DNA of 34,195 nucleotides, taken from positions 1 through 34,195 of the IMG/VR virus record IMGVR_UViG_3300014656_002176; one strand, given 5' to 3'. The notes below the pieces were generated by a model. The model ran no database searches, was not told where the DNA came from, and worked only from the letters and a program-made list of their open reading frames with translations. The DNA comes from a virus (lineage: Duplodnaviria; Caudoviricetes). This document shows, one piece after another, positions 8,470 to 28,602 of this stretch (the first letter of the stretch is position 1; each line of letters starts with the position of its first letter). Position numbers and translations under genes: made by a program.

Positions 8470-9693
8470 ATGCCTTATCTAAGAAACCCGAAAGGAAGAA
8501 TTGTTTGCATAGACAAGCCAAATGAATACGAAAAATACCTAAATACAAAAGGATTTGAGAAGATTACGCCAGAAGAAGAAAGAGATTTCGTTATGGAAAG
8601 ATATAAGATAGCAGAGAAGGTAACAACGAGAAGGGAAGAGGTTATTCAAAACAATTTTGTTCGAGGCATTTACTTGTCCACGGTAGTTGAGGGTGGCAAA
8701 GATGGTTATGGAGTAGCCAGCGATAAGATTGTCAAAGAATTGGTCAACCTAGACGTAGACATATCCCGTGTTTTTAAGAAACAACTCGTTGGACTACTAT
8801 TTCATAATCCATATTCCGTACTAAAAATGGAAAACCCATTCAAGGTGATTTATACGATGTTTGAGAGTACTAAAATACCAGACGATTGGGTAAAATACTT
8901 ACAATCTGCCGACAAGGTGATTGTACCCAGTAGATGGTGTAGAGACGTATTCAAAAATTCTGGTGTTAATGCCGATGTTATTCCATTGGGCTACGACGAT
9001 GATGTATATACTTTTAAAGAGAGAGAGAACAAAAGCGAAAAGCATGAACCATTTGTTTTTTTGCACTATAACGCATTTAATGTTCGAAAGGGTTTTTTAG
9101 AGGTATTTAAGGCATTTACCCAAGAATTTGATAAATCAGAACCAGTCAAGTTGGTTTTAAAGACGACACTGAATAGTCCGCCAATTCCTATCATTAAAGA
9201 CAAGTACCCTAATATAGAAGTTATTTGCAAAAAATATAGCGAGAAAGAGTTAGTTGAACTGATTCATAAGTCTGATTGTTTCGTCTTTCCTTCAAGGGGT
9301 GAGGGATTTGGCATGACTCCGCTAGAGTGTATGGCAACTGGATTACCTGCGATTGTACCCAATGCACACGGGATAAGTGAATATTTTGATAAAGAATGTA
9401 TGTATGAAGTAAAAGTTAAAGAAGACTGCCCCGCCCTATATCATAAATATAAGGGTGAAGATGTTGGAAAGATGGTGATTTGTGATGTGAAAGATCTGAG
9501 GAAGAAAATGCGTTATATATACGAACATCAAGATGAAGCTTTAGAGATGGGCAAAAGAGCTAGTCGGTATGTGAGACAGTGGACTTTTAGAAAAACGGCT
9601 ATTAAGCTTAAACAGATGGTTGAGGAACTCTATTCTAAGCCTATTGAAAAAAAAGCTCTAACAAATGTATTACAATTAAGTGAGGTTAAATAG
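8470..9693 (+). CDS. Glycosyltransferase, GT-B fold (GT4-like), with an N-terminal extension
   Basis: YTMFES, VIVPSRW, RKG, FVFPSRGEGFGMTPLECMATGLPAI (ExxxxxxxE motif). Confidence 0.9.
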   Translation: MPYLRNPKGRIVCIDKPNEYEKYLNTKGFEKITPEEERDFVMERYKIAEKVTTRREEVIQNNFVRGIYLSTVVEGGKDGYGVASDKIVKELVNLDVDISRVFKKQLVGLLFHNPYSVLKMENPFKVIYTMFESTKIPDDWVKYLQSADKVIVPSRWCRDVFKNSGVNADVIPLGYDDDVYTFKERENKSEKHEPFVFLHYNAFNVRKGFLEVFKAFTQEFDKSEPVKLVLKTTLNSPPIPIIKDKYPNIEVICKKYSEKELVELIHKSDCFVFPSRGEGFGMTPLECMATGLPAIVPNAHGISEYFDKECMYEVKVKEDCPALYHKYKGEDVGKMVICDVKDLRKKMRYIYEHQDEALEMGKRASRYVRQWTFRKTAIKLKQMVEELYSKPIEKKALTNVLQLSEVK

Positions 9694-9704
9694 TTTATAC
9701 AAAT

Positions 9705-9881
9705 ATGAAAAAAGTAAAAAAAACAAACGATCAGCCGAAAATGAAATATAGATATGTGTGTCCCGCTTGCACCAATAATGCAATCTTCACCAGCAGTAAA
9801 ATGATTGGTAACAAAGTTACCTGCCAGTCATGTGGAAAAGAAATTATATTAGAAAACATGAACAACTATATAAAAATATAA
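9705..9881 (+). CDS. Small zinc-ribbon protein (58 aa), absent from the ORF track
   Basis: MKKVKKTNDQPKMKYRYVCPACTNNAIFTSSKMIGNKVTCQSCGKEIILENMNNYIKI*; CxxC-x17-CxxC; fills the gap between two GT genes. Confidence 0.7.
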   Translation: MKKVKKTNDQPKMKYRYVCPACTNNAIFTSSKMIGNKVTCQSCGKEIILENMNNYIKI

Positions 9882-9882
9882 A

Positions 9883-11007
9883 ATGAACATCAAATATTGT
9901 GGTGCACTAAGAGACTATTCGGGATACGGAGAAGCTGGTCGCCATGATGTCGGCGCTCTGTTGAGTGCTGGGGTTGAAGTGAAAACCGAAATGCCAAGCT
10001 ATGTATTGGAGGTGTCAGATTTTGGTGAATTGGGTGAGGAATGTCGTAAGCGACAAGACCTATCTATATCTTATGGTATAAAAATACTTCACACTACTCC
10101 CAACGTATATTCTAAATACTACGAAGAAGGCAAATACCACATCGGAAGAGTTATCTGGGAGACAGATAAACTCCCCAAAGATTTCGCTGATAATGTTCAG
10201 AAGTATTGTGATGAGATATGGACTGCCAGCGAATTTAATAAAAAAGCAATAGAGAAGGCTGGGGTAACAAAACCGATCTATGTTATACCAGAGGCCATTG
10301 ATTGTAGGATTAATTCAGATGAAATAGAACCTTATTTAGTTTCGAATAATCAAGACTTCAAATTCTATTCTATGTTTGAATGGACTGAGAGAAAGAACCC
10401 GTCGGCGCTACTAGAGGCTTTTTGGACTGAATTTGACCCAGCAGAGCCCGTCAGCTTAACGATTAAGACTTATGTAGATAGTTTTAGGCCAGAGAAACAA
10501 AGAGAGATCGACGATTACGTTAAAGCAATAAAGAGAAAACTTAATTTGAGTAAATACGCCCCCTTATATCTTTATAAGGAGTTAATGGACAGACACCAGA
10601 TATATCGCTTCCACAAGACATTTGATGTTTATGTTAGCACACATCGAGGTGAGGGGTGGGGAATACCGCAGACTGAGGCCATGCTAATGGGTAAACCAAT
10701 AATCTCAACGAATTGTGGTGGTTGCCATGAATATCTAACTCAAAACGTAGATTCACTGTTACTTGAGCCAAAGATGATCCCAGTAAGAGCAAATTCAAGA
10801 AATCAAATCTGGTACACACAAGACCAGAACTGGGCGGATGTTGATATTGACGAAGTTAAAAAGAAGATGAGGTATATGTTTGAGTCTAGGGAAATAGTGA
10901 GCCAGATGGGTAAGGAAGCAAAGAAAACTGTCAAGAGAGAATTTGACTTACCAGTAGTTGGTGACATAATGAAAAGTAGATTAGAAATTATTCAAAAACA
11001 ATTATGA
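9883..11007 (+). CDS. Glycosyltransferase, GT-B fold (GT4-like)
   Basis: SGYGEA, WETDKLP, ERKNP, YVSTHRGEGWGIPQTEAMLMGKPII. Confidence 0.9.
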   Translation: MNIKYCGALRDYSGYGEAGRHDVGALLSAGVEVKTEMPSYVLEVSDFGELGEECRKRQDLSISYGIKILHTTPNVYSKYYEEGKYHIGRVIWETDKLPKDFADNVQKYCDEIWTASEFNKKAIEKAGVTKPIYVIPEAIDCRINSDEIEPYLVSNNQDFKFYSMFEWTERKNPSALLEAFWTEFDPAEPVSLTIKTYVDSFRPEKQREIDDYVKAIKRKLNLSKYAPLYLYKELMDRHQIYRFHKTFDVYVSTHRGEGWGIPQTEAMLMGKPIISTNCGGCHEYLTQNVDSLLLEPKMIPVRANSRNQIWYTQDQNWADVDIDEVKKKMRYMFESREIVSQMGKEAKKTVKREFDLPVVGDIMKSRLEIIQKQL

Positions 11008-11153
11008 GAAAAATGGAAACGATTATGTACATTTGTTTAATTCTTGTATTGGCCTATTACGTTCACATAGCCAATAAGCCAAAAGTACTTGTCTGTCAAA
11101 ATCGAAGTGACGATGTTCAAGTATGTACCGTTATGAATTATTTAGGAAAGTGA
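11004..11153 (+). CDS. Small membrane-anchored protein (49 aa), absent from the ORF track
   Basis: MRKMETIMYICLILVLAYYVHIANKPKVLVCQNRSDDVQVCTVMNYLGK*; ATGA overlap upstream, GTGA overlap downstream. Confidence 0.6.
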   Translation: MRKMETIMYICLILVLAYYVHIANKPKVLVCQNRSDDVQVCTVMNYLGK

Positions 11154-12160
11154 AACTACACTATATTTCCTGCCATTCTATTCTTGAATATGACGAAGTT
11201 AAGTTGTTTACCGAAATGGGAATTGATGTCTTTTCGAACGGGGCTTATATTGACCCGAAGGGACATATAACTCTACCCCGTCCCGCAATAGAGGGAATGG
11301 TTTACCACGAAGATTTAGCCCAAATTGCACGAAGTACCCCACGGACAGAACTTCCCCCAGAACTAATAGAACCTTTTGATGTGATAATGATTATGCATAG
11401 CCCCGATGTTTTATTTCAGAATTGGCAAAGAATTAAACACAAAAGAGTTATCTTTAGGTCAATAGGACAGTCTACTGGTGGACTAGAGAAGAGATTAAAG
11501 CCATTGATTGACGAGGGTTTGGAAGTGGTTAGATATTCCCCAATGGAAAAGAATTTGCCTAATTATGCTGGTGAGACGGCTATGATTAGATTTTATAAAG
11601 ACCCAGACGAATTTAAAGATTGGAATGGTGATGACCCCTTAGTCATTAACTTCACCCAAAGCTTGAAAGGTAGGCGTGATTTCTGCCACCACGATGAAAT
11701 TATTAAGATGATGGAAGGTTTTAACTCAAAAGTATATGGTAATGGAAATGATGATCTTGGATCTTTGAATGGTGGAGAATTGCCTTATGAGTTAATGAAG
11801 GGAAAGATGAGGGACGCCAGAGCATACGCCTATGGTGGAACTTACCCCGCTTGCTACACGCTATCATTTATTGAAGCCATGATGACTGGTATTCCCATTT
11901 TAGCAATCGGAAAAAAGACTGCTAATATTGAGAAGTTTGAACAGCTAGACTTCTATGAGGTAGATCAGATTATCGAGGATGGTGTAAACGGTTTTTGTAG
12001 CGATGAAATTGACAAATTAAAGGACTACATTTCAATCTTATTAAGCAACAAGGATTATGCCCAAAAAATAGGTAAAAAGGGAAGAGAAACGGCAATTAAG
12101 TTGTTTAGTAAGGAAACTATTAAGAATCAATGGTTAAAATATTTAAACTTAGACAAATGA
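11150..12160 (+). CDS. Glycosyltransferase, GT-B fold (divergent GT4-like); start moved to GTG 11150
   Basis: YTLSFIEAMMTGIPIL, IEDGVNGF, GRETAIKLFS...W C-terminus; GTGA coupling with the upstream ORF. Confidence 0.8.
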   Translation: MKLHYISCHSILEYDEVKLFTEMGIDVFSNGAYIDPKGHITLPRPAIEGMVYHEDLAQIARSTPRTELPPELIEPFDVIMIMHSPDVLFQNWQRIKHKRVIFRSIGQSTGGLEKRLKPLIDEGLEVVRYSPMEKNLPNYAGETAMIRFYKDPDEFKDWNGDDPLVINFTQSLKGRRDFCHHDEIIKMMEGFNSKVYGNGNDDLGSLNGGELPYELMKGKMRDARAYAYGGTYPACYTLSFIEAMMTGIPILAIGKKTANIEKFEQLDFYEVDQIIEDGVNGFCSDEIDKLKDYISILLSNKDYAQKIGKKGRETAIKLFSKETIKNQWLKYLNLDK

Positions 12161-12885
12161 CAATCACAAAAGAATTGCAAGAAAAAGATACCAGCTTAGT
12201 TGTCCACAATGAGGGAGAGTGGAATAAAACCACTTCTGAATACACAGCGTTTAACGACGCTGGTATTGAATGTGAGGTCGGAGAGTTTTTATACGGATTT
12301 TTGAGAGTTTTAAAACCAGAATTTGTACTAGAAACAGGGACTCATGTTGCCGTTGGTGCTTCCTATCTAGGGATGGCTTTGAAGGATAATAATAAAGGGC
12401 ACTTGGATACAGTTGAGTTTTTGCCAGTTATTTATGTAGAAGCTAAACGTAGAATTGAAAAGATGGGTCTTCAAGATTTTGTTGAATGCCATTTTGGTGA
12501 TGTAAAAGATTTTAAAATCCCAGAAGATTGGAGAGGTTCTAATGCCACCATCCAAGAAACCATCGGTGGGGATCAGCCAACAATTAAGTATGATTTTATA
12601 TTATTAGACACTGAACCCCAGACAAGATTTGCAGAATTTATCAAGTTTTTCCCACACCTAAAGGAAGGTGGTTACATATTTATCCACGACTTACACCGAC
12701 ACATGCACCAAATTCCTAACGAGGAACACGGCTTTGCTTGGCCATTCGGAAAAATACCTGCTCCAATCAGTCAGCTGGTTCTCGACGGCTCGGTTTGCGT
12801 GTTCCACTTGCCAACCCCAAGAGGTCTAACTGGCTTTTACAAGGTCAGCGAATCCGATTATAATTTTAATAAATATGAGAAGTAG
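12157..12885 (+). CDS. Class I SAM-dependent methyltransferase (Methyltransf_24-like); start moved to 12157
   Basis: VLETGTHVAVGASY, YDFILLD, LKEGGYIFIHD; ATGA coupling. Confidence 0.85.
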   Translation: MTITKELQEKDTSLVVHNEGEWNKTTSEYTAFNDAGIECEVGEFLYGFLRVLKPEFVLETGTHVAVGASYLGMALKDNNKGHLDTVEFLPVIYVEAKRRIEKMGLQDFVECHFGDVKDFKIPEDWRGSNATIQETIGGDQPTIKYDFILLDTEPQTRFAEFIKFFPHLKEGGYIFIHDLHRHMHQIPNEEHGFAWPFGKIPAPISQLVLDGSVCVFHLPTPRGLTGFYKVSESDYNFNKYEK

Positions 12886-13894
12886 AGCAGTTTTATTACC
12901 AACCCCGTGCGACCCGTTCCTATTAAAATATTGGCTTGAGAACTATGCCAAATACTATAAGGATGAAGTCGACAAATTATATGTTTGTTTAAATTCGAGC
13001 ATAGAGAAAGAGGTCATAGAGTACGAACAAAAACTCCTCGAAAGATACGGGGCTAGTTTTGTATATATAGACCACCAAATAGAACATGGTGACGCCATCA
13101 AAATCTTATTGGAAATGTGCAAGGAAGAATATGTAATGCTGGTCGAAGATGACGCTTATGTCTTCAAGAAAGGCCATATTGATTCTTGTTTTAAACACGT
13201 TGAGGACGGAGAGGTGGATTGTGTTGGCTCGAAGAGGGGCAGTTGTGCTTTTGAAATACTAGAAGAAGCCAAAAGAAAGTGGGGAGTTGATTATGAGGGT
13301 TTGGGGGATCATGGATGTAATTTTTGGCCATGTTTCTTTTTCTGTAAGACACAGACATTGTTAGACACTGATAGGCACTTTAAGGCCAAGGCTTGGGAGA
13401 AGGGTGAAGTTGTAGAACCATTGAATTATGTGATGAAAGAAACTGGATATGGAGACACTTTTGTAAACACTAGCCTCATATTAAGGTCTAAAGGATTAAA
13501 GTTCTTATGCCTACAACAATATCATGGTAGCCCCGAAGACTTGGTTCACTGGGAAAAACGACAGTATCTATGGAATGGTTTATCGGCTTGGACTCATGTA
13601 GGAAGTTTGAGTAGTGGTGTTGGTGGAGTTTTGGTTGATGATAGGGGAATAAGTCTTTCAAATAGAAAGATTTGTGTTGAACCAAGAGAGTTTAAGTTGG
13701 CCGAGGCACACATAGATGAGTGGGCAAGAAGAATACAGTGGTGGCAAACATTTTACGATAATTCAGATCCGAACGAGATATGTGAATTTAGGGAAGAATA
13801 CCGAAAAGCTTTAGATAGAATCTATGCTCTTAGCGGAGTTCACAGAAAAACGGTGTTAAAAAGACAAAAAGCATATAAGGAGTTAGGACTATGA
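12875..13894 (+). CDS. Putative glycosyltransferase, GT-A fold
   Basis: HGDAI...EYVMLVEDDAYV (DxD-type); cassette context. Confidence 0.7.
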   Translation: MRSRAVLLPTPCDPFLLKYWLENYAKYYKDEVDKLYVCLNSSIEKEVIEYEQKLLERYGASFVYIDHQIEHGDAIKILLEMCKEEYVMLVEDDAYVFKKGHIDSCFKHVEDGEVDCVGSKRGSCAFEILEEAKRKWGVDYEGLGDHGCNFWPCFFFCKTQTLLDTDRHFKAKAWEKGEVVEPLNYVMKETGYGDTFVNTSLILRSKGLKFLCLQQYHGSPEDLVHWEKRQYLWNGLSAWTHVGSLSSGVGGVLVDDRGISLSNRKICVEPREFKLAEAHIDEWARRIQWWQTFYDNSDPNEICEFREEYRKALDRIYALSGVHRKTVLKRQKAYKELGL

Positions 13895-14586
13895 TCGTAC
13901 CAGATATTGTAATTAGTTGGCCAAGAAATTGCGATTATCCAATGTGGCGAAAATTTATAAGGGAAAACAGAAATAGGTTTAAAGATGTCATTATTGTCAT
14001 CACCGAGACAAATCAAGGGTATGACTACAGTGATTTTATAAAAGAGGAAATGGGAGGTTATTGCACGGTAGTTAAGTCCCCACCTGTTCTTTCAGGACAA
14101 GATTGGAGAAATATATCAACAAACTTTGGGCTAACTTTGTGTAGTTCTGAATGGGTGTGGTTTACAGAACAAGATTTTTACCCCAATGAAGAGTTTTGGG
14201 AATATATCAGCCAAATTACAATGGACTTAAATAACGTAAACGTAATTGGCGCATATCAAGGGGATAGGCTTCACCCTTGTTGTATTTTTGCTAAAAGAGC
14301 TGTCGTAGACAAAACAAGGAGAGACTTTAGCATTACCCCAGGCGTTGCAGATCATTTTTATAAGTTTCAGCAAGACATAAAGAACATTTCGGTGATTAGA
14401 ATTAGCGCTGGACTATACGAACACTTAAATGGGCTTAGCAGTAATTTTAGTCTAATTGCAAATGGCGGAGTTCCAAACTATGAAGTAGATAGGTTTGATA
14501 AATACATTGCCGACTCTCTAAACAGCAAGGAAACACTACATCCTAACTTTATAAAAGTATGCCAAGAATACTTAGATAGAAAATGA
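13891..14586 (+). CDS. Putative glycosyltransferase, GT-A fold
   Basis: WRNISTNFGL...SEWVWFTEQDFY (ExD variant); cassette context. Confidence 0.65.
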   Translation: MIVPDIVISWPRNCDYPMWRKFIRENRNRFKDVIIVITETNQGYDYSDFIKEEMGGYCTVVKSPPVLSGQDWRNISTNFGLTLCSSEWVWFTEQDFYPNEEFWEYISQITMDLNNVNVIGAYQGDRLHPCCIFAKRAVVDKTRRDFSITPGVADHFYKFQQDIKNISVIRISAGLYEHLNGLSSNFSLIANGGVPNYEVDRFDKYIADSLNSKETLHPNFIKVCQEYLDRK

Positions 14587-15620
14587 ACGTGCTATGTGAT
14601 TTCCATCATGCAGGACTTCTTAATTCATTAATTCTATTATTTGAGAGGAGGTTGGGGTGGAAAGTTTATCGACCCATCGGCAGACAGTGGTTTGATGAAG
14701 GATATTGGAAGGTTTACGATCACCCAGCCACGGTAGCACAGTTTTTGGATGTTAATGGGGCTACCCCAGACAACACCGACCCCGTGAATGATGTTATTAC
14801 TGGTGAAAGCGGAGTTTACATTTGCCACGACATATCCTCTTTAAAGACAAATAGGGCAATTACCTTAGACAAATTTAGGGAGATGAACTTCGGGATCATA
14901 ATTGCCTCAATTCCAAAACATGTTGAACCGTTTAAAAAGTTATGCAAAGAACACTGGTCAAGACCTAAACTTATTTTCCAAATTGGCAATCAGTGGGTCG
15001 GGGAGGCCGAAAAAGCTGACAATATCATGTGCTCTTCTCGCATAGCCATAGCGAACAAGAATAGTGTGGTATATCATCAAGAATTTGACACAAACGTCTT
15101 TTCTAGGGCTTCTAGTGAGGTGTTCGAACCTAACATCACTTCGCTAGTTAATTGCTTCTCTAATGACGGAATGTTTAAAGAGGATTGGGAGCTATTCCAA
15201 AAGGTTGAAAAACTAATGCCAGAGTGGAATTTTAAGTGCATGGGCGGTCAGTGTCGTGATGGACAGGCGCATGGTGAGGCGGAAGTCGCCAAAACAATTG
15301 CAAAGGCTGGCTTTATTTGGCATACGAAAAAGGGCGGTGATGGTTACGGTCACATAATTCACAATGCTAGTGCTTGTGGTAGGCCAATGATTGTTAAAAA
15401 GGAGTATTATTCTGGTAAGTTGGGAGAAGACTTAATGATAGACGGAAAAACGTGTGTTTGTATTGACGGTTTAAACCCCTTGGAGATAAAGAATAAGATT
15501 GAATATTACTCTCGGCAATGGAAAGAACTATGTAACAACTCATATTATAATTTTAAAAATAAGGTTGACTTTGATAAGGAAGAGAAGATCATTAGACATT
15601 TTTTGTCAAAGTTGATATAA
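14583..15620 (+). CDS. Putative glycosyltransferase, GT-B fold (divergent)
   Basis: EFDTNVF, WHTKKGGDGYGHIIHNASACGRPMIV, DGKTC; resembles the GT4 donor-binding region. Confidence 0.7.
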   Translation: MNVLCDFHHAGLLNSLILLFERRLGWKVYRPIGRQWFDEGYWKVYDHPATVAQFLDVNGATPDNTDPVNDVITGESGVYICHDISSLKTNRAITLDKFREMNFGIIIASIPKHVEPFKKLCKEHWSRPKLIFQIGNQWVGEAEKADNIMCSSRIAIANKNSVVYHQEFDTNVFSRASSEVFEPNITSLVNCFSNDGMFKEDWELFQKVEKLMPEWNFKCMGGQCRDGQAHGEAEVAKTIAKAGFIWHTKKGGDGYGHIIHNASACGRPMIVKKEYYSGKLGEDLMIDGKTCVCIDGLNPLEIKNKIEYYSRQWKELCNNSYYNFKNKVDFDKEEKIIRHFLSKLI

Positions 15621-15626: not shown

Positions 15627-16490
15627 ATGGATAAAGTAAGCATTGTTATTCCATCGAGAAACGAGATCTTTTTAAAAAATACGATTGAGGACATTTTAAA
15701 AAATGCGACAGGTGAAATAGAGGTATTCCCAATTTTAGACGGTTACGAGCCACCAGCCGAGGAGATTGTCAAAGATCCAAGAGTAAATTATATCCGACTT
15801 CCAAAAGTCACATACACCCAGAAAAGACACGGAATAAATCATGCAATTTCAATTTGTACTGGTAAATATGTTATGTCTGTTGACGCACATTGCATGTTCG
15901 CTAAAGGGTTTGATGAACAGCTGGTTAAGGACAGTCAACCAAATTGGGTGCAAATACCAAGAAGACATAGGCTGGACGCAGAGAATTGGTGCTTACAAAC
16001 CCAGAGCGATAATCGACCACCAATAGATTACGAATATATTATGTACAAACCTCTTTTTACTGATCTTGGTATTCACGGTTTTAAGTGGGATGAGAGGACG
16101 CTAGAGAGGTGGGATATCCCCATCGACGACACTATCACGTTTCAGGGTTCGTGTTGGTTTATGGAAAAAGATTGGTTTAACAAGATGGGTTTTATGCAAG
16201 TTGAGGGATATACTGGCTGGGGTCAAGAAGCGGAGGAAATTTCTTTTACTACATGGTTGAACGGCGGAAGGGTGGTAACAAACAAGAACACTTGGTATGC
16301 CCATCTCCACAAAGGTCAAAAGTATGGAAGGATGTACTGGATGAGCCGTAACGAAAACAGAAAATCTTATGCTTATTCTTATAGCAAATGGATGGTCGAA
16401 AACAAGGACTTTTTTATTAGTTTAATTGAGCAATTCCCTTTAATGCCGTCGTGGCCATCAAATTGGAAAGAAAAATTATGGAAACTTTAG
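15627..16490 (+). CDS. GT-A glycosyltransferase with polypeptide GalNAc-transferase (GT27)-like motifs
   Basis: VSIVIPSRNE.FL..TI..IL, SVDAHC (DxH), WGQEAEEISFTTWLNGGRV, YAHL. Confidence 0.85.
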   Translation: MDKVSIVIPSRNEIFLKNTIEDILKNATGEIEVFPILDGYEPPAEEIVKDPRVNYIRLPKVTYTQKRHGINHAISICTGKYVMSVDAHCMFAKGFDEQLVKDSQPNWVQIPRRHRLDAENWCLQTQSDNRPPIDYEYIMYKPLFTDLGIHGFKWDERTLERWDIPIDDTITFQGSCWFMEKDWFNKMGFMQVEGYTGWGQEAEEISFTTWLNGGRVVTNKNTWYAHLHKGQKYGRMYWMSRNENRKSYAYSYSKWMVENKDFFISLIEQFPLMPSWPSNWKEKLWKL

Positions 16491-17092
16491 ATTATATCGT
16501 CAAAAAATTTAACATTGACCTAAATCAACCATCCCCGATAATGTTGGCAATAGGGAGATTTAAGGACATACCAAAACTTTTGTGTGAACTAGGCTTCAAC
16601 AAAGGGGCTGAAATTGGTGTTTATAGGGCTTCGTATTCGAGACATCTTTTAGACAGAAACCCAAACTTGCAACTAATAGGTGTAGACGCTTGGGAGGTGT
16701 ACACAGGATACAAGGATTACCACAGGGAAGATATAAAAGACGCTCATAGAGAATCCATCGAGGTGTATAAAAAATATGGTGATAGGGCTACTTTAATTCA
16801 AGGGTGGAGTAATTGGGTGGTCAAGACTATTCCCGATGAGTCGTTAGATTTTGTGTTTATAGACGGAAACCACGCCTATGAATACGTCGTTGAAGATATC
16901 GCCTTGTGGTCAAAAAAGGTAAAAAAGGGCGGAATTATATATGGACACGACTTTGATGATTACTCAAATAGTAGACGTTGGAAGGACATGAATGTTATTA
17001 ATGCCGTCGATGGGTGGATGAAATCTTATAAAATTAAACCTTGGTTTGTAACAACCAATAATTCCAACAAGTGTTGGCTATATGTAAAATGA
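16478..17092 (+). CDS. Class I SAM-dependent methyltransferase (Methyltransf_24-like); start moved to ATG 16478
   Basis: GAEIGVYRA, GVDAW, LDFVFIDGNHAYEYV..D...W..KVKKGGIIYGHDF. Confidence 0.9.
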   Translation: METLDYIVKKFNIDLNQPSPIMLAIGRFKDIPKLLCELGFNKGAEIGVYRASYSRHLLDRNPNLQLIGVDAWEVYTGYKDYHREDIKDAHRESIEVYKKYGDRATLIQGWSNWVVKTIPDESLDFVFIDGNHAYEYVVEDIALWSKKVKKGGIIYGHDFDDYSNSRRWKDMNVINAVDGWMKSYKIKPWFVTTNNSNKCWLYVK

Positions 17093-17820
17093 AACTATCA
17101 ATAATAATAGCAGTCTATAACAGTCACGGTGTCATAGAGAGGCAAATGAAGTTTTTCTCCAAACTCCAACTTCCCGACGATATAGAATTTATACTAGTAG
17201 ACGATGGCAGTTCTCCCCGACATGAGGGCTATAGCTTAAAAAACTTGAAGATTATCTATACAAATGATAAACGCCCTTGGACTCAGGGGTTGGCGAGAAA
17301 CAGGGGGGTAAAGGAATCGTCTGGTGAGTATATTTTAATGACTGACGCCGATCACATATTGTCTTACGAGGCAATAATGGACTCATATAATTTTACTGGT
17401 GATAAAATGATTTTCCCTAGATTTTTGGCAGTTTTGGATGAAGATGGGTGCTTGACTCAGGAAAAACAAGTTTTGAAAGATTACGGGATAGATGAATCAC
17501 GTTTTACTTCCAAGAGGGGTTTATATGCTTCATATCACGGGAATACTTTTTGTATGAAGAAATCTACATTTGAAAATCTCGGCGGATACCCAGAGAAGGC
17601 TTGTACTTACGGACATCATGCCACTTCAAAGAAAGGCGAGGACTCATATTTTAATACGAGGTGGAATCATTATGCCGTCAAGTACGGTCTTAAACCAATC
17701 GTAGGTTCTAAAATTTATATATTTCCAATAGGTAGATATAACGTGAATTATGATCTAAACCCAAAAGGTTTGTTTCATTCTTTAAGTTATGAGCCTGTTG
17801 CACAACCAAACAAACTATGA
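17089..17820 (+). CDS. Glycosyltransferase family 2; start moved to 17089
   Basis: MKLSIIIAVYN, ILVDDGS, ARNRG, MTDADH, LGGY.E, GED. Confidence 0.9.
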   Translation: MKLSIIIAVYNSHGVIERQMKFFSKLQLPDDIEFILVDDGSSPRHEGYSLKNLKIIYTNDKRPWTQGLARNRGVKESSGEYILMTDADHILSYEAIMDSYNFTGDKMIFPRFLAVLDEDGCLTQEKQVLKDYGIDESRFTSKRGLYASYHGNTFCMKKSTFENLGGYPEKACTYGHHATSKKGEDSYFNTRWNHYAVKYGLKPIVGSKIYIFPIGRYNVNYDLNPKGLFHSLSYEPVAQPNKL

Positions 17821-18581
17821 AAAAAATAGCGATAATCGGTTTCGGGTGGGTAGGCAAATCAATGGGGAAGTTGTTCCCAGAGGCCACAATTTACGATCCG
17901 ATGTTAAAAAATAATGTTACAAAGGAAGACGTAAATAATTGTGACGTGGCTTTTATAGGAGTTCCAACCCCTTGTATAGAAGAAGGTAGGCTGGACACTT
18001 CAATTGTTGAAGAATGTGTTGAGTGGTGTAAGTGTCCTCTTATTGTAATAAGATCAACAGTAAACCCAAACGACACCCTAAATTGGTCGGTAAAATATAA
18101 CAAAAAAATAGTCTTTCAGCCAGAGTATCTAGGTGAGACACCGCAACATCCATTATTAGATCCAAAGGCTAGGCCATTTTTAATTATCGGCGGACAACCA
18201 GAAGCAAGGAGGGATTTAATTGACCTATACACCGAGGTTTATAATGCAAACGTAACTATTCGCCAAGTATCTTCATTGGAGGCGGAGATAATCAAACTAA
18301 GCGAAAATAGAGCTATTGCCTTCAAGGTTGCCCAGTGTCAGGAATTATATGATGTTTGCGAAATTTCGGGAGTCGACTACTACCAAATTCGAGACGCAGT
18401 TTACGGAGATGATCCAAGATTTAATTTATGGTTTACTTTTATATACCCAGAAAAAAGAGGCATGAGCTCTAAATGTATTCCAAAGGATGTTTATGCTTGG
18501 TGTGCTTTTGCTGAATCCCTCGGTTATAATCCACAAATTACACGGGGAATCCTTAAAAAGAACAAGGAGTGGGTTGGTTAG
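17817..18581 (+). CDS. UDP-glucose/GDP-mannose dehydrogenase family protein, short form
   Basis: IIGFGWVG, FIGVPTP, IRSTV, PEYLGE, AEIIKLSEN, KCIPKD with the catalytic Cys; 254 aa, no C-terminal domain. Confidence 0.85.
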   Translation: MKKIAIIGFGWVGKSMGKLFPEATIYDPMLKNNVTKEDVNNCDVAFIGVPTPCIEEGRLDTSIVEECVEWCKCPLIVIRSTVNPNDTLNWSVKYNKKIVFQPEYLGETPQHPLLDPKARPFLIIGGQPEARRDLIDLYTEVYNANVTIRQVSSLEAEIIKLSENRAIAFKVAQCQELYDVCEISGVDYYQIRDAVYGDDPRFNLWFTFIYPEKRGMSSKCIPKDVYAWCAFAESLGYNPQITRGILKKNKEWVG

Positions 18582-18597
18582 GCTGTTATACTAAATT

Positions 18598-20274
18598 ATG
18601 TACGATTTATCTATTTTAATACCAGCCCGAAACGAGGAGTTTTTGGTCAGAACGATAGATGACATTTTGCAACACATAGAAGGTAATACAGAAATTATAG
18701 TCGGTTGTGATGGAAATTGGCCTGCCACTCCAATAAAAGACAATCCTAGGGTAACTGTTGTTCATGTTTCCGAGTCAATTGGCCAAAGGGCAATGACCAA
18801 TCAACTTTGCCGATTATCAAAAGCAAAATATGTGATGAAAGTAGACGCTCATTGTGCCTTCGATCAGGGATTTGACGTGAAGTTAATGGCTGATATGCAC
18901 GATGACTGGACTGTCGCCCCGATAATGAGGAATTTGCATGCATTTAATTGGAAGTGTAAGAATGGACATACCAGATATCAAAGCCCAAGCGGAGTCTGTA
19001 AAGTATGTGGTGAGCCGACGGAAAAGGACGTTGTTTGGATTGCTAAAACTAACCCTTCATCCACGTCGTATTGTTTTGACCCAGAACCTCACTTTCAATA
19101 TTTCAATGATTGTAAAAATAGACAATGGTACAAAGACCAAGGAGACCTAACTGAAAGCATGTCCCTTCAAGGCTCTTGTTTTATGTTGACTAGAGATAAA
19201 TATTGGGAGCTTAATATTTGTGATGAAAACTTTGGCAATTGGGGTTCTCAAGGAATCGAGGTGGCGTGTAAGACTTGGCTTTCTGGCGGAAGGGTGATAA
19301 TAAACCATAAGACTTGGTATGCGCATTTATTTAGAACTCAGGGAGGGGATTTTGGTTTTCCATACTTGCTAGGACAGGGTCAGATTTCAAATGCGAAAAA
19401 AACTGCACGGGAGATGTTTTTTGATGGGAGATTTAAAGGTGAACGACCAATTAGTTGGTTAGTAGAGAAATTCTGGCCAGTACCAAAATGGACAGAAGAT
19501 GATTTGAAAAAAATAGGTGGAAAAGTACCAGTAGTCGAAAAAACGTCAAGCACAGAGCCTATAGTGAAGCTATCAGGCACAAAAGGGGTCATATATTACA
19601 CAGATAATCAGTTAGATGAGAAGGTTATGAAAGCTTGTCAGAAACAATTATGGAAAAGTGCTTGTCGAGACCATAAATTACCAATAGTGTCCTGTTCTCT
19701 AAAACCGATGGATTTTGGTAAGAACAAAGTTTTTAAAGGCGAGAGAGGGTATTTGACCATGACTAAACAAATTTTAACTGCTTTAGAGGAGCTGGATACA
19801 GACATTGTGTTCTTTTGTGAGCATGATGTCTTGTATCCCCCAGAACATTTTGCCTTTACTCCACCAGATAGAAACACTTGGTATTACGAGGAAAACTATT
19901 GGTTTTTAAGACTTAACGATGGTTTTGCTATTAGTTATGACTGTTCACCTTTATCGGGATTGGTAGTTTACAGAGATATTGCTATTAAACATTTTAAAGA
20001 AAGAATCGCTTTAATGGAAAAAGACCAGTTTAAAGAGTTTTCTATGTTAAAGATAGGTTTCGAACCGATGACCCATGGAAGAATTAAGTGGGAAAATTCA
20101 TACCCCTTCAAGACTTTTTATTCTCCTAAGCCTAGTATAGACATTACTCATGGAAGTAATGTTAGTCGAAAAAGGTGGAGGATAGACCAGTTTAGACGTA
20201 AACCCAAAAGATGGCAGGAAGGCACGATTGATACTATCTCCGAATGGGATAATGTCAAAAGATTGTTGGGATAA
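18598..20274 (+). CDS. Two-domain glycosyltransferase: GT27-like N-terminal domain plus a second GT-A domain
   Basis: LSILIPARNE, KVDAHC, WGSQGIEVACKTWLSGGRV, YAHLFR; C-terminal IIYYTDN-like start and FFCEHDVLY. Confidence 0.85.
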   Translation: MYDLSILIPARNEEFLVRTIDDILQHIEGNTEIIVGCDGNWPATPIKDNPRVTVVHVSESIGQRAMTNQLCRLSKAKYVMKVDAHCAFDQGFDVKLMADMHDDWTVAPIMRNLHAFNWKCKNGHTRYQSPSGVCKVCGEPTEKDVVWIAKTNPSSTSYCFDPEPHFQYFNDCKNRQWYKDQGDLTESMSLQGSCFMLTRDKYWELNICDENFGNWGSQGIEVACKTWLSGGRVIINHKTWYAHLFRTQGGDFGFPYLLGQGQISNAKKTAREMFFDGRFKGERPISWLVEKFWPVPKWTEDDLKKIGGKVPVVEKTSSTEPIVKLSGTKGVIYYTDNQLDEKVMKACQKQLWKSACRDHKLPIVSCSLKPMDFGKNKVFKGERGYLTMTKQILTALEELDTDIVFFCEHDVLYPPEHFAFTPPDRNTWYYEENYWFLRLNDGFAISYDCSPLSGLVVYRDIAIKHFKERIALMEKDQFKEFSMLKIGFEPMTHGRIKWENSYPFKTFYSPKPSIDITHGSNVSRKRWRIDQFRRKPKRWQEGTIDTISEWDNVKRLLG

Positions 20275-20300
20275 GACCGAGAGAAAAGGTATAATTAATT

Positions 20301-23300
20301 ATGGCTTCAGCGGAAATCATAACCACAGGTCTTTTTAATAGCACATATCTCAAATCATATTATCGTTTTGAATCTGGGGCTTTAACTACAGATAGTAGTA
20401 GTCAAGGTCACACTTTGACGGCAATATCTGACCCAGCGGAGGGGGATGGTGTTTTTGGTGGGGCTGTTGATTTAGATGGTAATGACGGGTATTCAATTTC
20501 AGACCATGCAGATTTTAAGCCGACGGGCAACTTCTCGATTAATGCTTGGATAAAAAGCTCTACAACAGGAGCAATTCAGGCCATTTTTGCGTCATATACG
20601 GTTACACCAAATACCGCAGGAATTATGTTAGATGTAAATTCTTCTGGGTACGCAGTCTTGGTTTCAGGAAAAGATACTGGCACTCTTGAAAATACGGACT
20701 GGGCTCAGTGCGTGGGTACGGCAAGTGTTTGCGATGGTGGGTGGCACATGATTACTGGTACATGGGACGGAACGAATTTGAAAATTTACGTCGATGGTTC
20801 ACTTCAGACAACAAAGGCGTGGTCAAATGCCCCTTCGTATGACCCGACAAACGTCGTTCGGTTTGGTTGTCGAGACCCATTTAGCACTGGGGCAATTTCT
20901 TTTGTAACTGGGTCACTTGACGATGTGGCTGTTTTTAACGGGCTTGCCTTATCGTCTGACCAAGTAGCCAGTATTTATGATGGTACAATAAATTCAGTAG
21001 AATTAAACACTACTGGACTGTTGAATGATGATAATCTGGCTGGATATTGGAGATTCGAAGACAATTCATTGGACACAACCGAAAATAACAATGATTTAAC
21101 CCTTTCTGGTTCTCCGTCTTATGTAACTGGTTTTTTCGGAAAAGGACTAAATTTGGTTTTGTCTTCGGCACAATATGCTTACATATCAGATGGTTCACAG
21201 ACTGATTTAGATTTGTCTGGCGATTTTACAATCTCAGCATGGATAAAAAAAACCGCCACTGGTATCGGGTATATATGTGGTAAGTGGAACGGCACATCTA
21301 ACCAGAGAGCTTATTTGTTTTTTATAAACTCCGATAATAAATTGTACGTTAGTGTTACAGATAATGGTACTAACGACTGGTCTGGTGGACATGCAATCCA
21401 ATTAAAAAGTACGTCTACGGTGTCAACAGGCAGATGGACACATGTTGCAGTGACTTTTGACATAAGTTCAGATTCATGCACTTTTTACAAAAACGGTGTT
21501 GGTGAGGCAGGAACTTTGGTTCAGGGAGGTATAGGGACTACTGTCTATAATAGCACGGCAACTTTTTGTGTTGGTGCAAGCACAGAGGCAACTGTTGGGC
21601 TTGACGCAGTTTTGGATGAATTGGCTGTTTTTAGTCGAATCTTAACTTCTGACGAAATCGGAAGTCTTTATGACGGAACTATAAATTCTCCAAGTCCATC
21701 AGCCTCACCCTCAGCTTCTCCATCTTTATCACCAAGTTCTAGCGAATCTCCGTCTACTTCTCCAAGCCAAAGCCCGTCAGAGTCGCCTTCACCAAGCCCT
21801 AGTTCTTCTCAAAGTCCCTCATTGTCCCCTAGTTCTAGCTTGTCCCCATCTCTTTCCCCTTCTCAAAGTCCTAGTTTATCCCCATCCTCATCAAACAGTC
21901 CTTCCACCTCTCCCTCAAATTCACCGTCTATTAGTCCTTCTTCATCCAACTCTCCTAGTCGTAGTCCGTCATCCTCTAATTCTCCCTCACGAAGCCCAAG
22001 TTCTAGTATCTCTCCCAGTAATAGCCCAAGTGTTAGCCCTTCTTTGAGTCCCTCTAGTTCACAGTCTCCTTCAAATTCTCCCTCTACTAGCCCTAGTTTA
22101 AGTCCTAGTTCTTCAAACTCTCCCTCGCAATCTCCATCAGAATCCCCTTCCTTATCTCCGTCTGCCAGTGAATCTCCCAGTACTTCACCGAGCGAAAGCC
22201 CGAGTACAAGCCCTTCAAGTTCTATCTCCCCTTCTTTGTCGCCATCTGAATCCCCCTCTCTTTCTCCGAGTTCTAGTGAAAGTCCTTCTGAAAGTCCCAG
22301 CGAGTCACCTTCTTTAAGCCCTAGTAGTTCGGTGAGCCCCTCCGAAAGTCCTTCGGTGTCTCCTTCGCTTTCTCCAAGCTCTAGTGAATCACCATCAGAA
22401 TCTCCAAGCCTCTCACCCAGCAGTTCAATCTCACCGTCGGTTAGCCCTTCGGAAAGTCCTTCAACCTCACCATCGACATCAGTTAGTCCTAGTGAATCTC
22501 CAAGCCAAAGCCCGTCGTTAAGTCCTTCTAGTAGCCCTAGCAACTCTCCTTCCCAATCACCTTCACTATCTCCTTCAAGTTCGGAAAGTCCCAGTGAATC
22601 ATCAAGTGAAAGTCCGAGCGAGTCCCCGAGCTCATCAACTTCCCCAAGCTTGTCACCTTCTTCTTCTCAGTCACCTAGTTTAAGTCCTAGCGCCTCTTTG
22701 AGCCCCAGTTCTTCGCAATCACCTTCTACCAGCCCAAGTTCATCTGTTTCCCCGTCAAATTCTCCATCTAATTCTCCGTCTATCTCGCCATCTGTCTCGC
22801 CGTCGTCTTCGGCTTCACCTAGTTTGTCACCAAGTAGTTCTGTTTCTCCGTCTGAATCCCCGTCCGAAAGTCCAAGCTCGTCCCCATCTTCTAGCGTGTC
22901 TCCGTCAGAGTCGCCGTCTGTTAGTCCGTCAGTAAGTCCAAGTTCTTCGCAGTCTCCTAGTGAGAGCCCGTCAAACTCACCATCAACCTCCCCCTCATCG
23001 TCTCCAAGTGAGAGCCCCTCTAGTTCACCTTCTTCATCAGTCTCACCCTCTTTAAGCCCGTCTAGTAGTGTTTCTCCGTCGGAAATTTCTAGTGAATCGT
23101 CAAGCGTTTCCCCAAGTGAGTCACCCAGCCTATCTCCATCATCTTCAATTTCTCCATCCGAGTCACCAAGTGAGTCACCGTCAGTGTCTCCAAGTTCGTC
23201 AGAAAGTCCCTCCAAAAGTCCCTCTTCATCTGAATCCCCATCCGTTTCCCCGTCATCATCATTATCACCCAGTTCTTCGAGCAGTCCGTCTTTAAGTCCG

Positions 23301-23858
23301 TCATCTTCCGTGTCCCCATCAGCTAGTCCATCATCTTCTAATAGCGCCAGCCTTTCTCCGTCCTCAAGTACATCATCGTCATCTTCTCCGTCCGCCAGTC
23401 CTTCTATCTCTCCCTCATTATCACCGTCGTCTAGTGTTTCCCAGTCAGCTTCCCCAAGCGAGTCGCCAAGCAAATCACCTTCTTCATCAGCTAGCCCTTC
23501 GGGCAGTCCGTCTGTTTCACCAAGTGTTTCACCGTCCTCATCCACAAGTCCGAGCCAAAGTCCTTCTATTAGTCCGAGCCAATCCCCCTCAAGTTCTGTT
23601 TCTCCGTCACAATCACCTAGTGAATCACCAAGTTCATCGGCCTCTCCATCTCAATCACCTTCACTAAGTCCATCCTCATCATTCTCACCGAGTCCTTCAC
23701 CTAAGCAACAATGGTATGAAAAAAACAACACTCAGTTTGTCAGCGATCTCGGGGCTAAAGATAAATGGGAAAACAAAAACGATACGACCTTCCAACAACC
23801 GAACAATTTCAAATGGTATAATAAATTAACTAAAAATTGGATATATAAAAATGGCTAG
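20301..23858 (+). CDS. Putative virion fibre/decoration protein: 2x LamG (concanavalin A-like) domains + 672-aa Ser/Pro stalk + short Trp-rich C-terminus
   Basis: YYRFE/YWRFE, FSINAWIK/FTISAWIK, WHMITGTWDG/WTHVAVTFD, GSLDDVAVF/LDELAVFSR; no signal peptide; between the capsid and head-tail genes. Confidence 0.85.
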   Translation: MASAEIITTGLFNSTYLKSYYRFESGALTTDSSSQGHTLTAISDPAEGDGVFGGAVDLDGNDGYSISDHADFKPTGNFSINAWIKSSTTGAIQAIFASYTVTPNTAGIMLDVNSSGYAVLVSGKDTGTLENTDWAQCVGTASVCDGGWHMITGTWDGTNLKIYVDGSLQTTKAWSNAPSYDPTNVVRFGCRDPFSTGAISFVTGSLDDVAVFNGLALSSDQVASIYDGTINSVELNTTGLLNDDNLAGYWRFEDNSLDTTENNNDLTLSGSPSYVTGFFGKGLNLVLSSAQYAYISDGSQTDLDLSGDFTISAWIKKTATGIGYICGKWNGTSNQRAYLFFINSDNKLYVSVTDNGTNDWSGGHAIQLKSTSTVSTGRWTHVAVTFDISSDSCTFYKNGVGEAGTLVQGGIGTTVYNSTATFCVGASTEATVGLDAVLDELAVFSRILTSDEIGSLYDGTINSPSPSASPSASPSLSPSSSESPSTSPSQSPSESPSPSPSSSQSPSLSPSSSLSPSLSPSQSPSLSPSSSNSPSTSPSNSPSISPSSSNSPSRSPSSSNSPSRSPSSSISPSNSPSVSPSLSPSSSQSPSNSPSTSPSLSPSSSNSPSQSPSESPSLSPSASESPSTSPSESPSTSPSSSISPSLSPSESPSLSPSSSESPSESPSESPSLSPSSSVSPSESPSVSPSLSPSSSESPSESPSLSPSSSISPSVSPSESPSTSPSTSVSPSESPSQSPSLSPSSSPSNSPSQSPSLSPSSSESPSESSSESPSESPSSSTSPSLSPSSSQSPSLSPSASLSPSSSQSPSTSPSSSVSPSNSPSNSPSISPSVSPSSSASPSLSPSSSVSPSESPSESPSSSPSSSVSPSESPSVSPSVSPSSSQSPSESPSNSPSTSPSSSPSESPSSSPSSSVSPSLSPSSSVSPSEISSESSSVSPSESPSLSPSSSISPSESPSESPSVSPSSSESPSKSPSSSESPSVSPSSSLSPSSSSSPSLSPSSSVSPSASPSSSNSASLSPSSSTSSSSSPSASPSISPSLSPSSSVSQSASPSESPSKSPSSSASPSGSPSVSPSVSPSSSTSPSQSPSISPSQSPSSSVSPSQSPSESPSSSASPSQSPSLSPSSSFSPSPSPKQQWYEKNNTQFVSDLGAKDKWENKNDTTFQQPNNFKWYNKLTKNWIYKNG
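21687..23702 (+). repeat. Coding low-complexity (Ser-X)n repeat, 672 aa
   Basis: SPSxSPSxSPSSSx units; Ser at essentially every second residue; codons highly varied. Confidence 0.97.
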
Positions 23859-26967: not shown

Positions 26968-28602
26968 ATGTTTGAGATAGGATCAGCAGTTGCCAAAATT
27001 AAAGCAGACACAAGCGATTTCCAAAAAGGTATCGGGGAAATAAGCGGGAGTACAAGCAAATTGGGGTCTTTGATGACAAAACTTGGTGGTGTTATAGCTG
27101 GCGCATTTGCGATTAGTAAAATAGTTGATTTTGGAAAGCAAGCTAGTTTGGAAGCCTCTAATTTTGAAAGGGCGATGATTTCTTTAGACATTATCGCTGG
27201 TAAATTTGGTGTTAGTGCGGACGTGGCCAAAGAGAAGGCGACAGAACTTGGGAAAAGTTTAAGAATTGGCGTTGGTGCTTCGGCTGAAAGTTTACAGAAC
27301 TTGTTGAAATCAGGATTAAACTTAGATCAATCGGTTGAGTTAATGAAGAGGTTTACAAACGAAGCCATAACAGGCAAGTCGGCAAACATCTCACTTGCTC
27401 AGGCGGTACAAAACTTGTCTTTTGCCTATGCTACTGGAAATAGTGCATTGGGAAATATGTCTGGTATGTCAGAAAACTGGTCGGATATTATAGATAAAGG
27501 TCGGATAGCTTTGGAAAAGGAAGGAGTTGCGACAAAGGATATTACCGATGATATGGCCAAGCTTAGGGGTACAATGGACTTGACAAACTTGACACTAGGT
27601 TCTTCGGAGAGATTTACTGGTACTTTAATTGACAAACAAGCAGAACTGGGCATTAAGATACTTGATTTAAAGGTAAAAATAGGGGACATTCTTAACCCAG
27701 TCTTGGCATTTTTTGTTGGCTTAATGGCGACAGTTGTTGATGGGGTTTCTAATTTTGTCTCTGTATTAACTCAATCTTCGAAAGAAGGTGGTGCTTTATC
27801 AAACGTATTAAGCGAAATGGGTATAGTGTGGAATAATCTAATTGTATTTTTAGAGCCTTTAATTAGTTTATTTGTGGCAAATGTAGTCCCGTTATTACAA
27901 AGCTTGTGGTCTGAATTTATGTATTTTGTAAACGCAGTCGTACCACCAGTCGTTTCCATTGCTGGTTTTTTATATAGATCATTGGTAGAAATATTTACAA
28001 ATCTGTATAATTTTTGGGTACAAAATTGGGAAAATATATCTAAAATTTTGAAAGGCGCATGGGAGTTTATTGTTGGTTTCTTGCAGTGGAATTTTGGTGT
28101 AATAGTTGGAATATTTGTGGTTTTCTTAAACTTACTTACTGGAAACTGGCAGGGTGCTTGGGACGCAATCAAACACTATTCTCAGGTTGCTTGGGATGGT
28201 TTAAAAAATATGTTCAATGGGATAATTTCATTCCTATCTGGTTGGGGTGGCTGGTTGCTTGATGTTCTTACAGAGCCTTTCAGAAAGGCGTGGGAGACTA
28301 TCAAAGGAATTGTGGAAAATATAAAAAACGCTTTAGACTTTACCAAAAGACACTCTCCCTCGGTGGTAGATATTGTCCATAAAGGGGTCGGACTGGTCAA
28401 CAGGGCGTTTGATGATCTAAAAGTGGGTGTTGAGCCGATTGACACACAACACCTATCCCTAGCGGGCGCTGGTACGTCAAATTTGGCATTGAATATAAGT
28501 CTTGATGGGGCAATGATAACCGATGAATACGGCGCAAGGTCAATGGCTGAAAAAGTCGGAGATCTTATCATTACCCAGTTAAAAGGTAATGTGAGGTTCT
28601 AA
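26968..28602 (+). CDS. Tape measure protein (544 aa)
   Basis: N-terminal IGSAVAKIKADTSDFQKG, amphipathic repeats with periodic W/F (GNWQGAWDAIK), HSPS near the C-terminus. Confidence 0.9.
   Translation: MFEIGSAVAKIKADTSDFQKGIGEISGSTSKLGSLMTKLGGVIAGAFAISKIVDFGKQASLEASNFERAMISLDIIAGKFGVSADVAKEKATELGKSLRIGVGASAESLQNLLKSGLNLDQSVELMKRFTNEAITGKSANISLAQAVQNLSFAYATGNSALGNMSGMSENWSDIIDKGRIALEKEGVATKDITDDMAKLRGTMDLTNLTLGSSERFTGTLIDKQAELGIKILDLKVKIGDILNPVLAFFVGLMATVVDGVSNFVSVLTQSSKEGGALSNVLSEMGIVWNNLIVFLEPLISLFVANVVPLLQSLWSEFMYFVNAVVPPVVSIAGFLYRSLVEIFTNLYNFWVQNWENISKILKGAWEFIVGFLQWNFGVIVGIFVVFLNLLTGNWQGAWDAIKHYSQVAWDGLKNMFNGIISFLSGWGGWLLDVLTEPFRKAWETIKGIVENIKNALDFTKRHSPSVVDIVHKGVGLVNRAFDDLKVGVEPIDTQHLSLAGAGTSNLALNISLDGAMITDEYGARSMAEKVGDLIITQLKGNVRF

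Follow-up and report, generated by a model that had tools for sequence, protein, structure and literature searches.

Review excerpts place the GT27 glycosyltransferases (GTs) that initiate mucin-type glycosylation, the polypeptide GalNAc-transferases (ppGalNAc-Ts), in the eukaryotic secretory pathway and describe them as carrying a lectin domain; the priming of serine-repeat stalks is assigned to GtfA/B. No phage or Patescibacteria GT27-like family is described in the literature that was searched (subscription papers and CAZy itself lay outside its reach). Here we analyze two genes, GT-A (P0001) and GT-B (P0002), from a tailed phage (Caudoviricetes) sequence of 34,195 nucleotides (nt), positions 1 to 34,195 of IMG/VR record IMGVR_UViG_3300014656_002176, hereafter called the window. 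Both products had been proposed from sequence motifs to be eukaryotic-type GT27 GalNAc-transferases that prime the Ser-Pro stalks encoded in the window (the original prediction). On balance, we favor a modified reading in which GT-B would prime stalk serines in the cytoplasm, GT-A would act second, and the donor would probably not be UDP-GalNAc.

Predicted fold, motifs and tree position of the two enzymes

AlphaFold models of GT-A and GT-B (predicted local distance difference test scores of 96.6 and 92.0, respectively) were compared with 48,161 chains. The top structural match of both was mouse GalNAc-T1, with Z 25.1 for GT-A (root-mean-square deviation [rmsd] 2.9, 262 aligned) and Z 26.7 for GT-B (rmsd 2.5, 262 aligned), followed by Toxoplasma GalNAc-T3 (Z 23.6 and 25.2); the best GT from outside GT27 reached Z 18.7 and 18.2. 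Every Foldseek row listed for GT-A was a ppGalNAc-T. The models thus predict that the two proteins share the fold of the mucin-initiating GT27 transferases. A single-sequence search of 177,635 PDB sequences likewise returned ppGalNAc-Ts as the best matches of both proteins (E 1.8e-6 for GT-A and 4.7e-6 for GT-B), with nothing else at E < 0.1, and these were the only full-length PDB matches of either open reading frame (ORF). Profiles of the two families (110 GT-A and 52 GT-B homologues) matched ppGalNAc-Ts over most of the domain (E 9e-13 and 2e-12), whereas bacterial GT2 structures aligned only across the N-terminal, nucleotide-binding 85–125 positions. Chondroitin synthase scored equally high against the profiles, through two N-terminal-type stretches. 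Pfam assigns both proteins to Glycos_transf_2, and neither matches the GT60 model PF11397, which picked up 3 of the 110 GT-A members (best E 0.046) and 2 of the 52 GT-B members (best E 0.0052).

GT-A and GT-B are paralogues (30% identity over 266 columns, E 4e-35), and the motifs on which the original prediction was based were found largely as described. DAHC lies at residues 86–89 of GT-A (nt 15882-15893) and 83–86 of GT-B (nt 18844-18855), and the further motifs read WGQEAEEISFTTWLNGG at 198–214 of GT-A (nt 16218-16268) and WGSQGIEVACKTWLSGG at 215–231 of GT-B (nt 19240-19290). Of the YAHL(FR) attributed to both proteins, YAHL is common to the two, but FR is found only in GT-B (nt 19318-19335), GT-A reading YAHLHK. 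The DxH pair and the C-His, residues of the predicted metal site, are nearly invariant, D86, H88 and H226 being kept in 208, 205 and 208 of 208 GT-A homologues and D83, H85 and H243 each in 97 of 97 GT-B homologues. According to excerpts of PMC7185993, DxH is confined to GT27 and GT60, both of which are polypeptide Ser/Thr transferases. A ricin lectin domain gave zero Pfam matches in the two proteins and their families, and neither protein has a membrane helix (maximum 19-residue hydropathy of 0.95 in GT-A and 0.81 in GT-B), in agreement with the lectin-less, anchor-less enzymes originally envisaged. The family is large, comprising 2,080 clusters at 90% identity for GT-A and 477 clusters at 50% identity with E < 1e-30. 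Tblastn of both GTs against 50,697 GenBank phage records gave no match.

A tree was built from 75 rows kept from a 109-row alignment (21 A, 15 B, 12 of a second lectin-less clade, C2, 17 of eukaryotic architecture and 10 GT2; 266 columns). Support was 99/90 for A and 100/99 for B, each as one side of a branch, and 100/100 for A plus B. Eukaryotic GT27 and C2 grouped together (100/98) apart from A plus B, and joining A plus B to the eukaryotes without C2 was rejected (approximately unbiased test, p-AU 0.017). On this alignment, A plus B is a separate deep clade outside eukaryotic GT27, so the "eukaryotic GT27" label is not supported as given; members of the clade should not be filed in that family, although they appear to work alike. 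In this tree the clade did not nest among the ten GT2 rows, although the split from them has only moderate support, as taken up below. The closest tree neighbours of the window's two proteins are encoded on chromosomes (73% identity for GT-A, 77% for GT-B), a pattern that suggests exchange between the phage and hosts of this kind.

The C2 clade came from a motif scan that detected a different lectin-less enzyme, which has the complete WGGEN motif and is encoded on a viral contig of 149 kb (L295:2476-3324, equivalent to L413:10001-10849). Searches with this enzyme returned about 60 lectin-less environmental relatives (proteins P0272-P0286 and P0334-P0379) as well as eukaryotic GT27 sequences, and the WGGEN-type pattern was present at 117 metagenome loci. 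C2 members have an intact WGGEN and R208-equivalent and are sister to eukaryotic GT27, and many are fused to a PF01973 domain. The gene adjoining the enzyme of the 149-kb contig resembles UDP-galactopyranose mutase, and a Ser-repeat gene was not found within 20 kb of it.

Acceptor pocket, donor site and candidate stalk acceptors

For residue mapping, the GT-B profile was aligned to human GalNAc-T2 (2FFU chain numbering plus 70). F166, Y168, F245, W215, R246 and F254-P255 of GT-B align on F280, W282, F361, W331, R362 and F369-P370 of GalNAc-T2. The pocket residues F166, Y168 and F245 are conserved in 95, 95 and 97 of 97 distinct homologues, and W215, R246 and F254-P255 are kept to a similar extent (95–97 of 97). 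Excerpts of PMC4432651 describe F280, W282 and F361 as the residues of Pro-x-Pro recognition in GalNAc-T2, the F361A and W282A changes nearly abolishing activity. The GT-A family, mapped from the range of its single-sequence PDB match (152 on 280), has His at the F361 position in 179 of 208 members (H228 in the window), a variable F280 position (F152 in 56 of 208) and mostly Phe at W331, while the W282 equivalent (W154) is kept in 200 of 208. Because the GT-A family lacks conservation of the peptide pocket, the proposal that both enzymes prime the stalks finds good support for GT-B but not for GT-A. The close genomic link to the stalks is described below.

The donor site appears to differ from that of GalNAc-T2 in both paralogues. 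At the E334 position GT-B has Gln in 84 and Met in 10 of 97 homologues (Q218 in the window), at N335 it has Gly in all 97 (G219), and at R208 the window has T67, Thr being found in 15 of 20 tree rows with an invariant Arg three residues earlier. GT-A keeps the E334 equivalent (E201) in 196 of 208 members and has A202 for N335 and I70 for R208. Both paralogues are changed at R208 (Ile or Thr), N335 and G309 (Ser/Ala), and the WGGEN motif, intact in 27 of 27 eukaryotic rows, is not intact in either. R208 and E334 are listed among the specificity contacts in excerpts of PMC13071866. Since GT-B has lost the equivalents of E334, N335 and R208, it is probably not GalNAc-specific, and the original assignment as GalNAc transferases is not upheld. 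At the column of the inverting catalytic base, 8 of 10 GT2 rows hold D/E; all 20 GT-B rows hold Gly there, and GT-A has mostly Ala, Pro or Phe. If this column is equated with the GT2 xED, as we infer, the absence of the acid fits a retaining mechanism as laid out in excerpts of PMC7185993.

GT-B differs from GT-A in two further parts. An insert with a zinc-ribbon-like Cys/His pattern (C120, C134 and C137) lies beside the predicted peptide groove and may grip the stalk in place of the lectin. The C-domain gave no Pfam or PDB sequence match and no significant profile match to GT-A, and it is split off or absent in some cassettes.

The candidate acceptors are two proteins with long (Ser-X)n stalks. 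The stalk of the 1185-residue LamG protein (ORF 20301) has Ser at 99.7% of alternate positions over 672 amino acids (aa) and is 21% Pro, with all 144 prolines directly after Ser. Pro lies at −3, −1, +1 or +3 of 330 of 335 register serines in this ORF and of 57 of 58 in the tail hub-like ORF 28602. These positions are favorable for mucin-type glycosylation according to excerpts of PMC6994419; the match is a fit rather than a proof, because it largely follows from the alternation and the 21% Pro. Alternating serines are described in excerpts of PMC6973325 as a hallmark of the glycosylated stalks of serine-rich repeat proteins (SRRPs). No signal, hydrophobic or membrane segment was found in the stalk proteins.

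The genomic association of enzymes and stalks was analyzed at the best 80 of 120 viral GT-A relatives. A (Ser-X)n tract of at least 30 aa was present within 10 kb at 65 of these 80 loci, across unrelated capsid and portal types. The recurrent order is GT-A, a methyltransferase with variable GTs, GT-B and the stalk gene. With downstream DNA in view, the stalk is the very next gene after GT-B at 20 of 50 viral loci and 11 of 25 loci from the GTDB database, and it follows within three genes at 35 of 50 and 15 of 25; it lies no more than two genes upstream of GT-A at 34 of 73 viral loci. Among the 98 loci holding both enzymes, GT-B is single in all 98, while GT-A is present in 2–4 copies in 21. 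The commonest companion is the methyltransferase cluster of 16451..17092 (85 of 99 cassettes). Genes of the GT4 type (GT-B fold), counted with profiles seeded from cassette loci and flanks of up to 10 kb, occur in 31 of 99 cassettes; they are present at 19 of the 67 loci with A, B and a stalk, and none was seen at the other 48. A gene-by-gene scan of six compact loci gave a GT4 Pfam match at two of them and none at the other four. At locus L246, only GT-A and GT-B stand beside the stalk gene. As a separate observation, 25 viral loci (including L027:9242-9952 and L049:9267-9965) encode, right after the putative capsid gene, a small protein with a (Ser-X)n tail of about 80–320 aa, a candidate for a glycosylated capsid decoration.

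Related enzymes are also found on bacterial chromosomes. GTDB gave 141 matches, of which 75 loci (L220-L294, for example L225:8573-9967) were examined; most are titled as Patescibacteria groups, and the others have mixed titles and a similar gene context. Host-type neighbours and none of the clustered phage head families were found at 55 of the 75, phage head genes at 2, and neither at 18. A tatC gene of the twin-arginine translocation (Tat) system is nearby at 27 of the 75 versus 0 of 80 viral loci, the cassettes following it and a companion membrane protein; 28 of 29 copies of this protein contain an internal Tat-like motif, [K/R]RxFL. Together with neighbouring proteins that resemble phage fibre parts, this suggests that the chromosomal cassettes serve a Tat-exported glycosylated surface fibre. 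A stalk lies within the flank of only 19 of the 75 loci, many of which end before the cassette does. In a survey of 400 genomes (0.4–2.1 Mb) of the phylum of the bin that contains the window, the enzymes were found in 5; a Ser-biased repeat pattern, which still counts plain Ser-Pro linkers, was present in all 5 versus 36 of the 395 enzyme-negative genomes, and the three highest counts were enzyme-positive. The Fisher p of 9e-6 for this contrast is overstated, as two of the five positives share a family. A first phylum-wide repeat pattern had been replaced, having also matched Thr-Pro linkers (178/401).

The phage locus

The window corresponds to the part of a tailed phage genome that encodes the particle, with terminase, SPP1-like portal, capsid (7472), head-tail connectors, tail tube, tape measure and tail hub. 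Twelve genes, mostly for sugar and methyl transferases, separate the capsid gene from the 1185-aa LamG protein (Table 1). The nucleotide-sugar dehydrogenase of this cluster is only 254 aa long, its C-terminal Pfam domain being absent, and many cassettes encode the same short form. The first GT4 gene of the upstream block tracks the capsid lineage and not GT-A/GT-B: of 14 capsid relatives (L206-L219; window region 8470-12160), 12 have a GT4 gene after that for the capsid, and none has GT-A/B. Because these relatives keep the GT4 gene without GT-A/B, the glycosylation genes of this phage seem to form two modules that differ in origin. As a control, the same relatives showed GT-A/B or stalks in 0 of 14; only L208 (20.9 kb) extends far enough beyond the capsid, so that this is one informative case.

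Table 1. Features of the window considered in this analysis (nt positions in the window).
Feature	Position	Strand	Remarks
GT-A (P0001), 287 aa	15627..16490	+	Stand-alone GT27-like catalytic domain; D86, H88, H226, E201 (T2 E334), W154 (W282), H228 for F361; likely second-step enzyme
GT-B (P0002), 558 aa	18598..20274	+	Two domains
GT-B N-domain, aa 1-305	18598..19512	+	GT27-like; D83/H85/H243, F166/Y168/F245, W215, R246, F254-P255; Q218/G219 for E334/N335; likely peptide-priming
Zinc-ribbon-like insert of GT-B, C120 to C137	18955..19008	+	Each Cys kept in 96/97 homologues
GT-B C-domain, aa 326-558	19573..20274	+	Second GT-A-type domain; invariant E-x-D
1185-aa protein with two LamG domains and 672-aa (Ser-X)n stalk	20301..23858	+	Between GT cluster and head-tail adaptor; likely virion fibre and main acceptor
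(Ser-X)n tract 1	21687..23702	+	335 register serines
Tail hub-like protein with second, 116-aa (Ser-X)n tract (nt 29118-29465)	28602..30908	+	
Methyltransf_24 methyltransferase	16451..17092	+	Pfam; likely glycan O-methylation
GT2-family glycosyltransferase	17071..17820	+	Pfam; likely elongating
Short UDP-glucose/GDP-mannose dehydrogenase-like protein	17817..18581	+	N-terminal and central Pfam domains only
Upstream block of seven GT4-type, GT-A-type, methyltransferase and unassigned genes	8470..15620	+	After major capsid gene
GDP-mannose 4,6-dehydratase-like enzyme	408..1424	+	Possible deoxy-sugar donor source

The window makes up the whole of contig C15 in a 1.19-Mb bin. Its GC content is 0.388 compared to about 0.43 in most contigs of the bin, and no further GT-A or GT-B homologue was found on the bin contigs outside C15, so the link of the phage to this host is uncertain. 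Two other contigs of the bin (C55 and C72) have short Thr-Pro linkers of their own, yet the GT27-like gene is only on the phage contig. An assembly artefact was considered and rejected: a contig from an independent assembly covers 19197-25580 with zero differences and even depth, although that run may itself be the source of the window.

Predicted pathway, alternatives and relation to known systems

We propose the following pathway. The stalk proteins (fibre and tail hub) would very probably be the acceptors, O-glycosylated in the host cytoplasm. Given such acceptors, there is a good chance that the GT-B N-domain binds a Pro near the acceptor Ser in its F166/Y168/F245 pocket and transfers the sugar with retention, using a divalent metal. 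The donor is likely to be a nucleotide sugar other than UDP-GalNAc, perhaps a common host sugar nucleotide, because in the smallest cassettes no gene for sugar synthesis lies next to GT-A and GT-B or between them. It is also fairly likely that GT-A would fill in next to the first sugar or extend it. The C-domain and the other GTs would then extend the glycan and the methyltransferases cap it, resulting in a stiff bottle-brush stalk that would keep the LamG heads off the virion. A broader proposal is somewhat less likely than not: that a large undescribed family of enzymes initiating protein O-glycosylation in the cytoplasm is common to phages and Patescibacteria and forms an outer sister of eukaryotic GT27; that it makes bottle-brush mucin-like stalks on virions and, via Tat, on host surfaces; that the kit is swapped; and that together with C2 it marks a prokaryote-virus origin of mucin-type glycosylation.

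Four other explanations deserve consideration. That both proteins are true polypeptide alpha-GalNAc transferases priming the stalks in parallel is unlikely: the common DxH, C-His and fold and the retention of E201 and W154 in GT-A speak for it, but R208, G309 and N335 are lost in both and E334 in GT-B, A plus B falls outside eukaryotic GT27, and the sole epimerase-family gene of the window scores as a GDP-mannose dehydratase (327 versus 64 bits for GalE). A reversed order, with GT-A priming the peptide and the two-domain GT-B extending the glycan, would account for the E334 equivalent of GT-A and for the stalk genes just upstream of it, but the pocket is conserved in GT-B and not in GT-A, and it is GT-A that has undergone duplication and diversification; we consider this order slightly less probable still.

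It is similarly improbable that both enzymes elongate glycans and that the primer is a GtfA-like GT4, the GT-B C-domain or a host enzyme. The (Ser-X)n pattern is indeed that of SRRPs, which are primed by GtfA/B according to excerpts of PMC6973325, the window has GT4-type genes, and Pfam files both proteins with the GT2s. GT4-type genes are, however, found at a minority of the loci with A, B and a stalk, the C-domain is missing at the stalk-bearing loci L016 and L044, and the enzymes have DxH in place of DxD, no xED acid and, in GT-B, the peptide pocket. Finally, the cluster could modify host surface polymers, a lipid-linked glycan or phage DNA, the stalks being unglycosylated linkers. Phage GTs are described in excerpts of PMC12619734 as modifying DNA and host serotype, and some stalk-bearing contigs lack the enzymes; the cluster nevertheless sits in the virion modules of unrelated phages, adjoins a stalk gene in phages and chromosomes alike, and encodes enzymes without membrane segments, which makes this the least probable of the alternatives.

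Several observations weigh against priming by GT-B followed by GT-A. Identity to ppGalNAc-Ts is only 17–22%. The pocket mapping rests on sequence alignment, and MAFFT shifts both pocket alignments by one column, placing Y168 one column off W282. Two of the three pocket residues (F152 and W154) are present in the window's own GT-A, and the third, F361, is not constant among the ppGalNAc-Ts either, being Tyr in T7/T10; GT-A could thus act on peptides or glycopeptides. The split from the GT2s, represented by ten long-branched uncharacterised rows, has only moderate support (91/75, not starred). GT60 is not represented in the tree; GT60 sequences were sought in 3, 201 and 12 genomes or records, and none scored over the cut-off. 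The loci include near-duplicates and kin, so the counts overstate independence. No stalk is visible at 15 of the 80 viral GT-A loci, most of which end early; L025, where both enzymes are encoded, shows no stalk over 20.8 kb. In the reciprocal test, 22 contigs among the matches listed had a tract of at least 90 aa, and the enzymes accompanied it in 10 of them (the underlying scan gave at least 125 rows, mostly short Ser-Pro linkers or other frames). Of the enzyme-negative contigs, nine were searched whole and had none (fragments 4–56% complete, one of 185 kb), and three were covered only in part. Long alternating Ser-Pro tracts without a GT-A/B match occur in L139 (the 185-kb record), L134, L146, L156, L169 and L179. 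Such stalk-bearing fragments may use another primer or lack the relevant DNA.

Being small, soluble and free of anchor and lectin, the enzymes should be easy to express. This would open the origin of mucin-type initiation and the basis of donor choice to direct tests, and the enzymes could find use in bacterial glyco-engineering. Compared to eukaryotic GT27 (GalNAc-T1, GalNAc-T2 and Toxoplasma GalNAc-T3), they are alike in predicted fold, DxH and C-His, WG motif and Ser/Pro-rich acceptor, GT-B also in the F280/W282/F361 pocket, R362 and the F-P loop. They differ in lacking the ricin domain and anchor, in the altered donor-site residues, in forming a separate clade, in being cytoplasmic and in coming from phages and bacteria, and GT-B adds the zinc-ribbon insert and a second GT domain. 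The GT60 polypeptide alpha-GlcNAc transferases of protists and bacteria are likewise related to GT27, have DxH but no lectin domain, and initiate glycosylation of Ser/Thr (excerpts of PMC8724618 and PMC7185993), but PF11397 detects few members of the present families, and these at E 0.005–0.1. Mycobacteriophages also encode GTs among their virion genes (Freeman et al. 2023, as summarised in excerpts of PMC12619734); their glycosylation is at capsid and tail-tube C-termini according to the same text, whereas hundreds of sites on dedicated stalks are predicted here. The SRRPs Fap1, GspB and PsrP with GtfA/GtfB share alternating-serine stalks, cytoplasmic glycosylation (predicted for the stalks here) and enzymes encoded next door. 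The present stalks, on the other hand, are 21% Pro and are virion proteins or, in chromosomes, Tat-linked; the constant enzymes are GT27-like and not GtfA/B, no GtfA/GtfB, LPxTG or SecA2/Y2 names appear among the Pfam and NCBIfam matches of the window proteins, and the stalk proteins have no signal peptide. If our reading is correct, viruses and ultra-small bacteria would possess a third route, in which a GT27-type primer acts on an SRRP-type acceptor.

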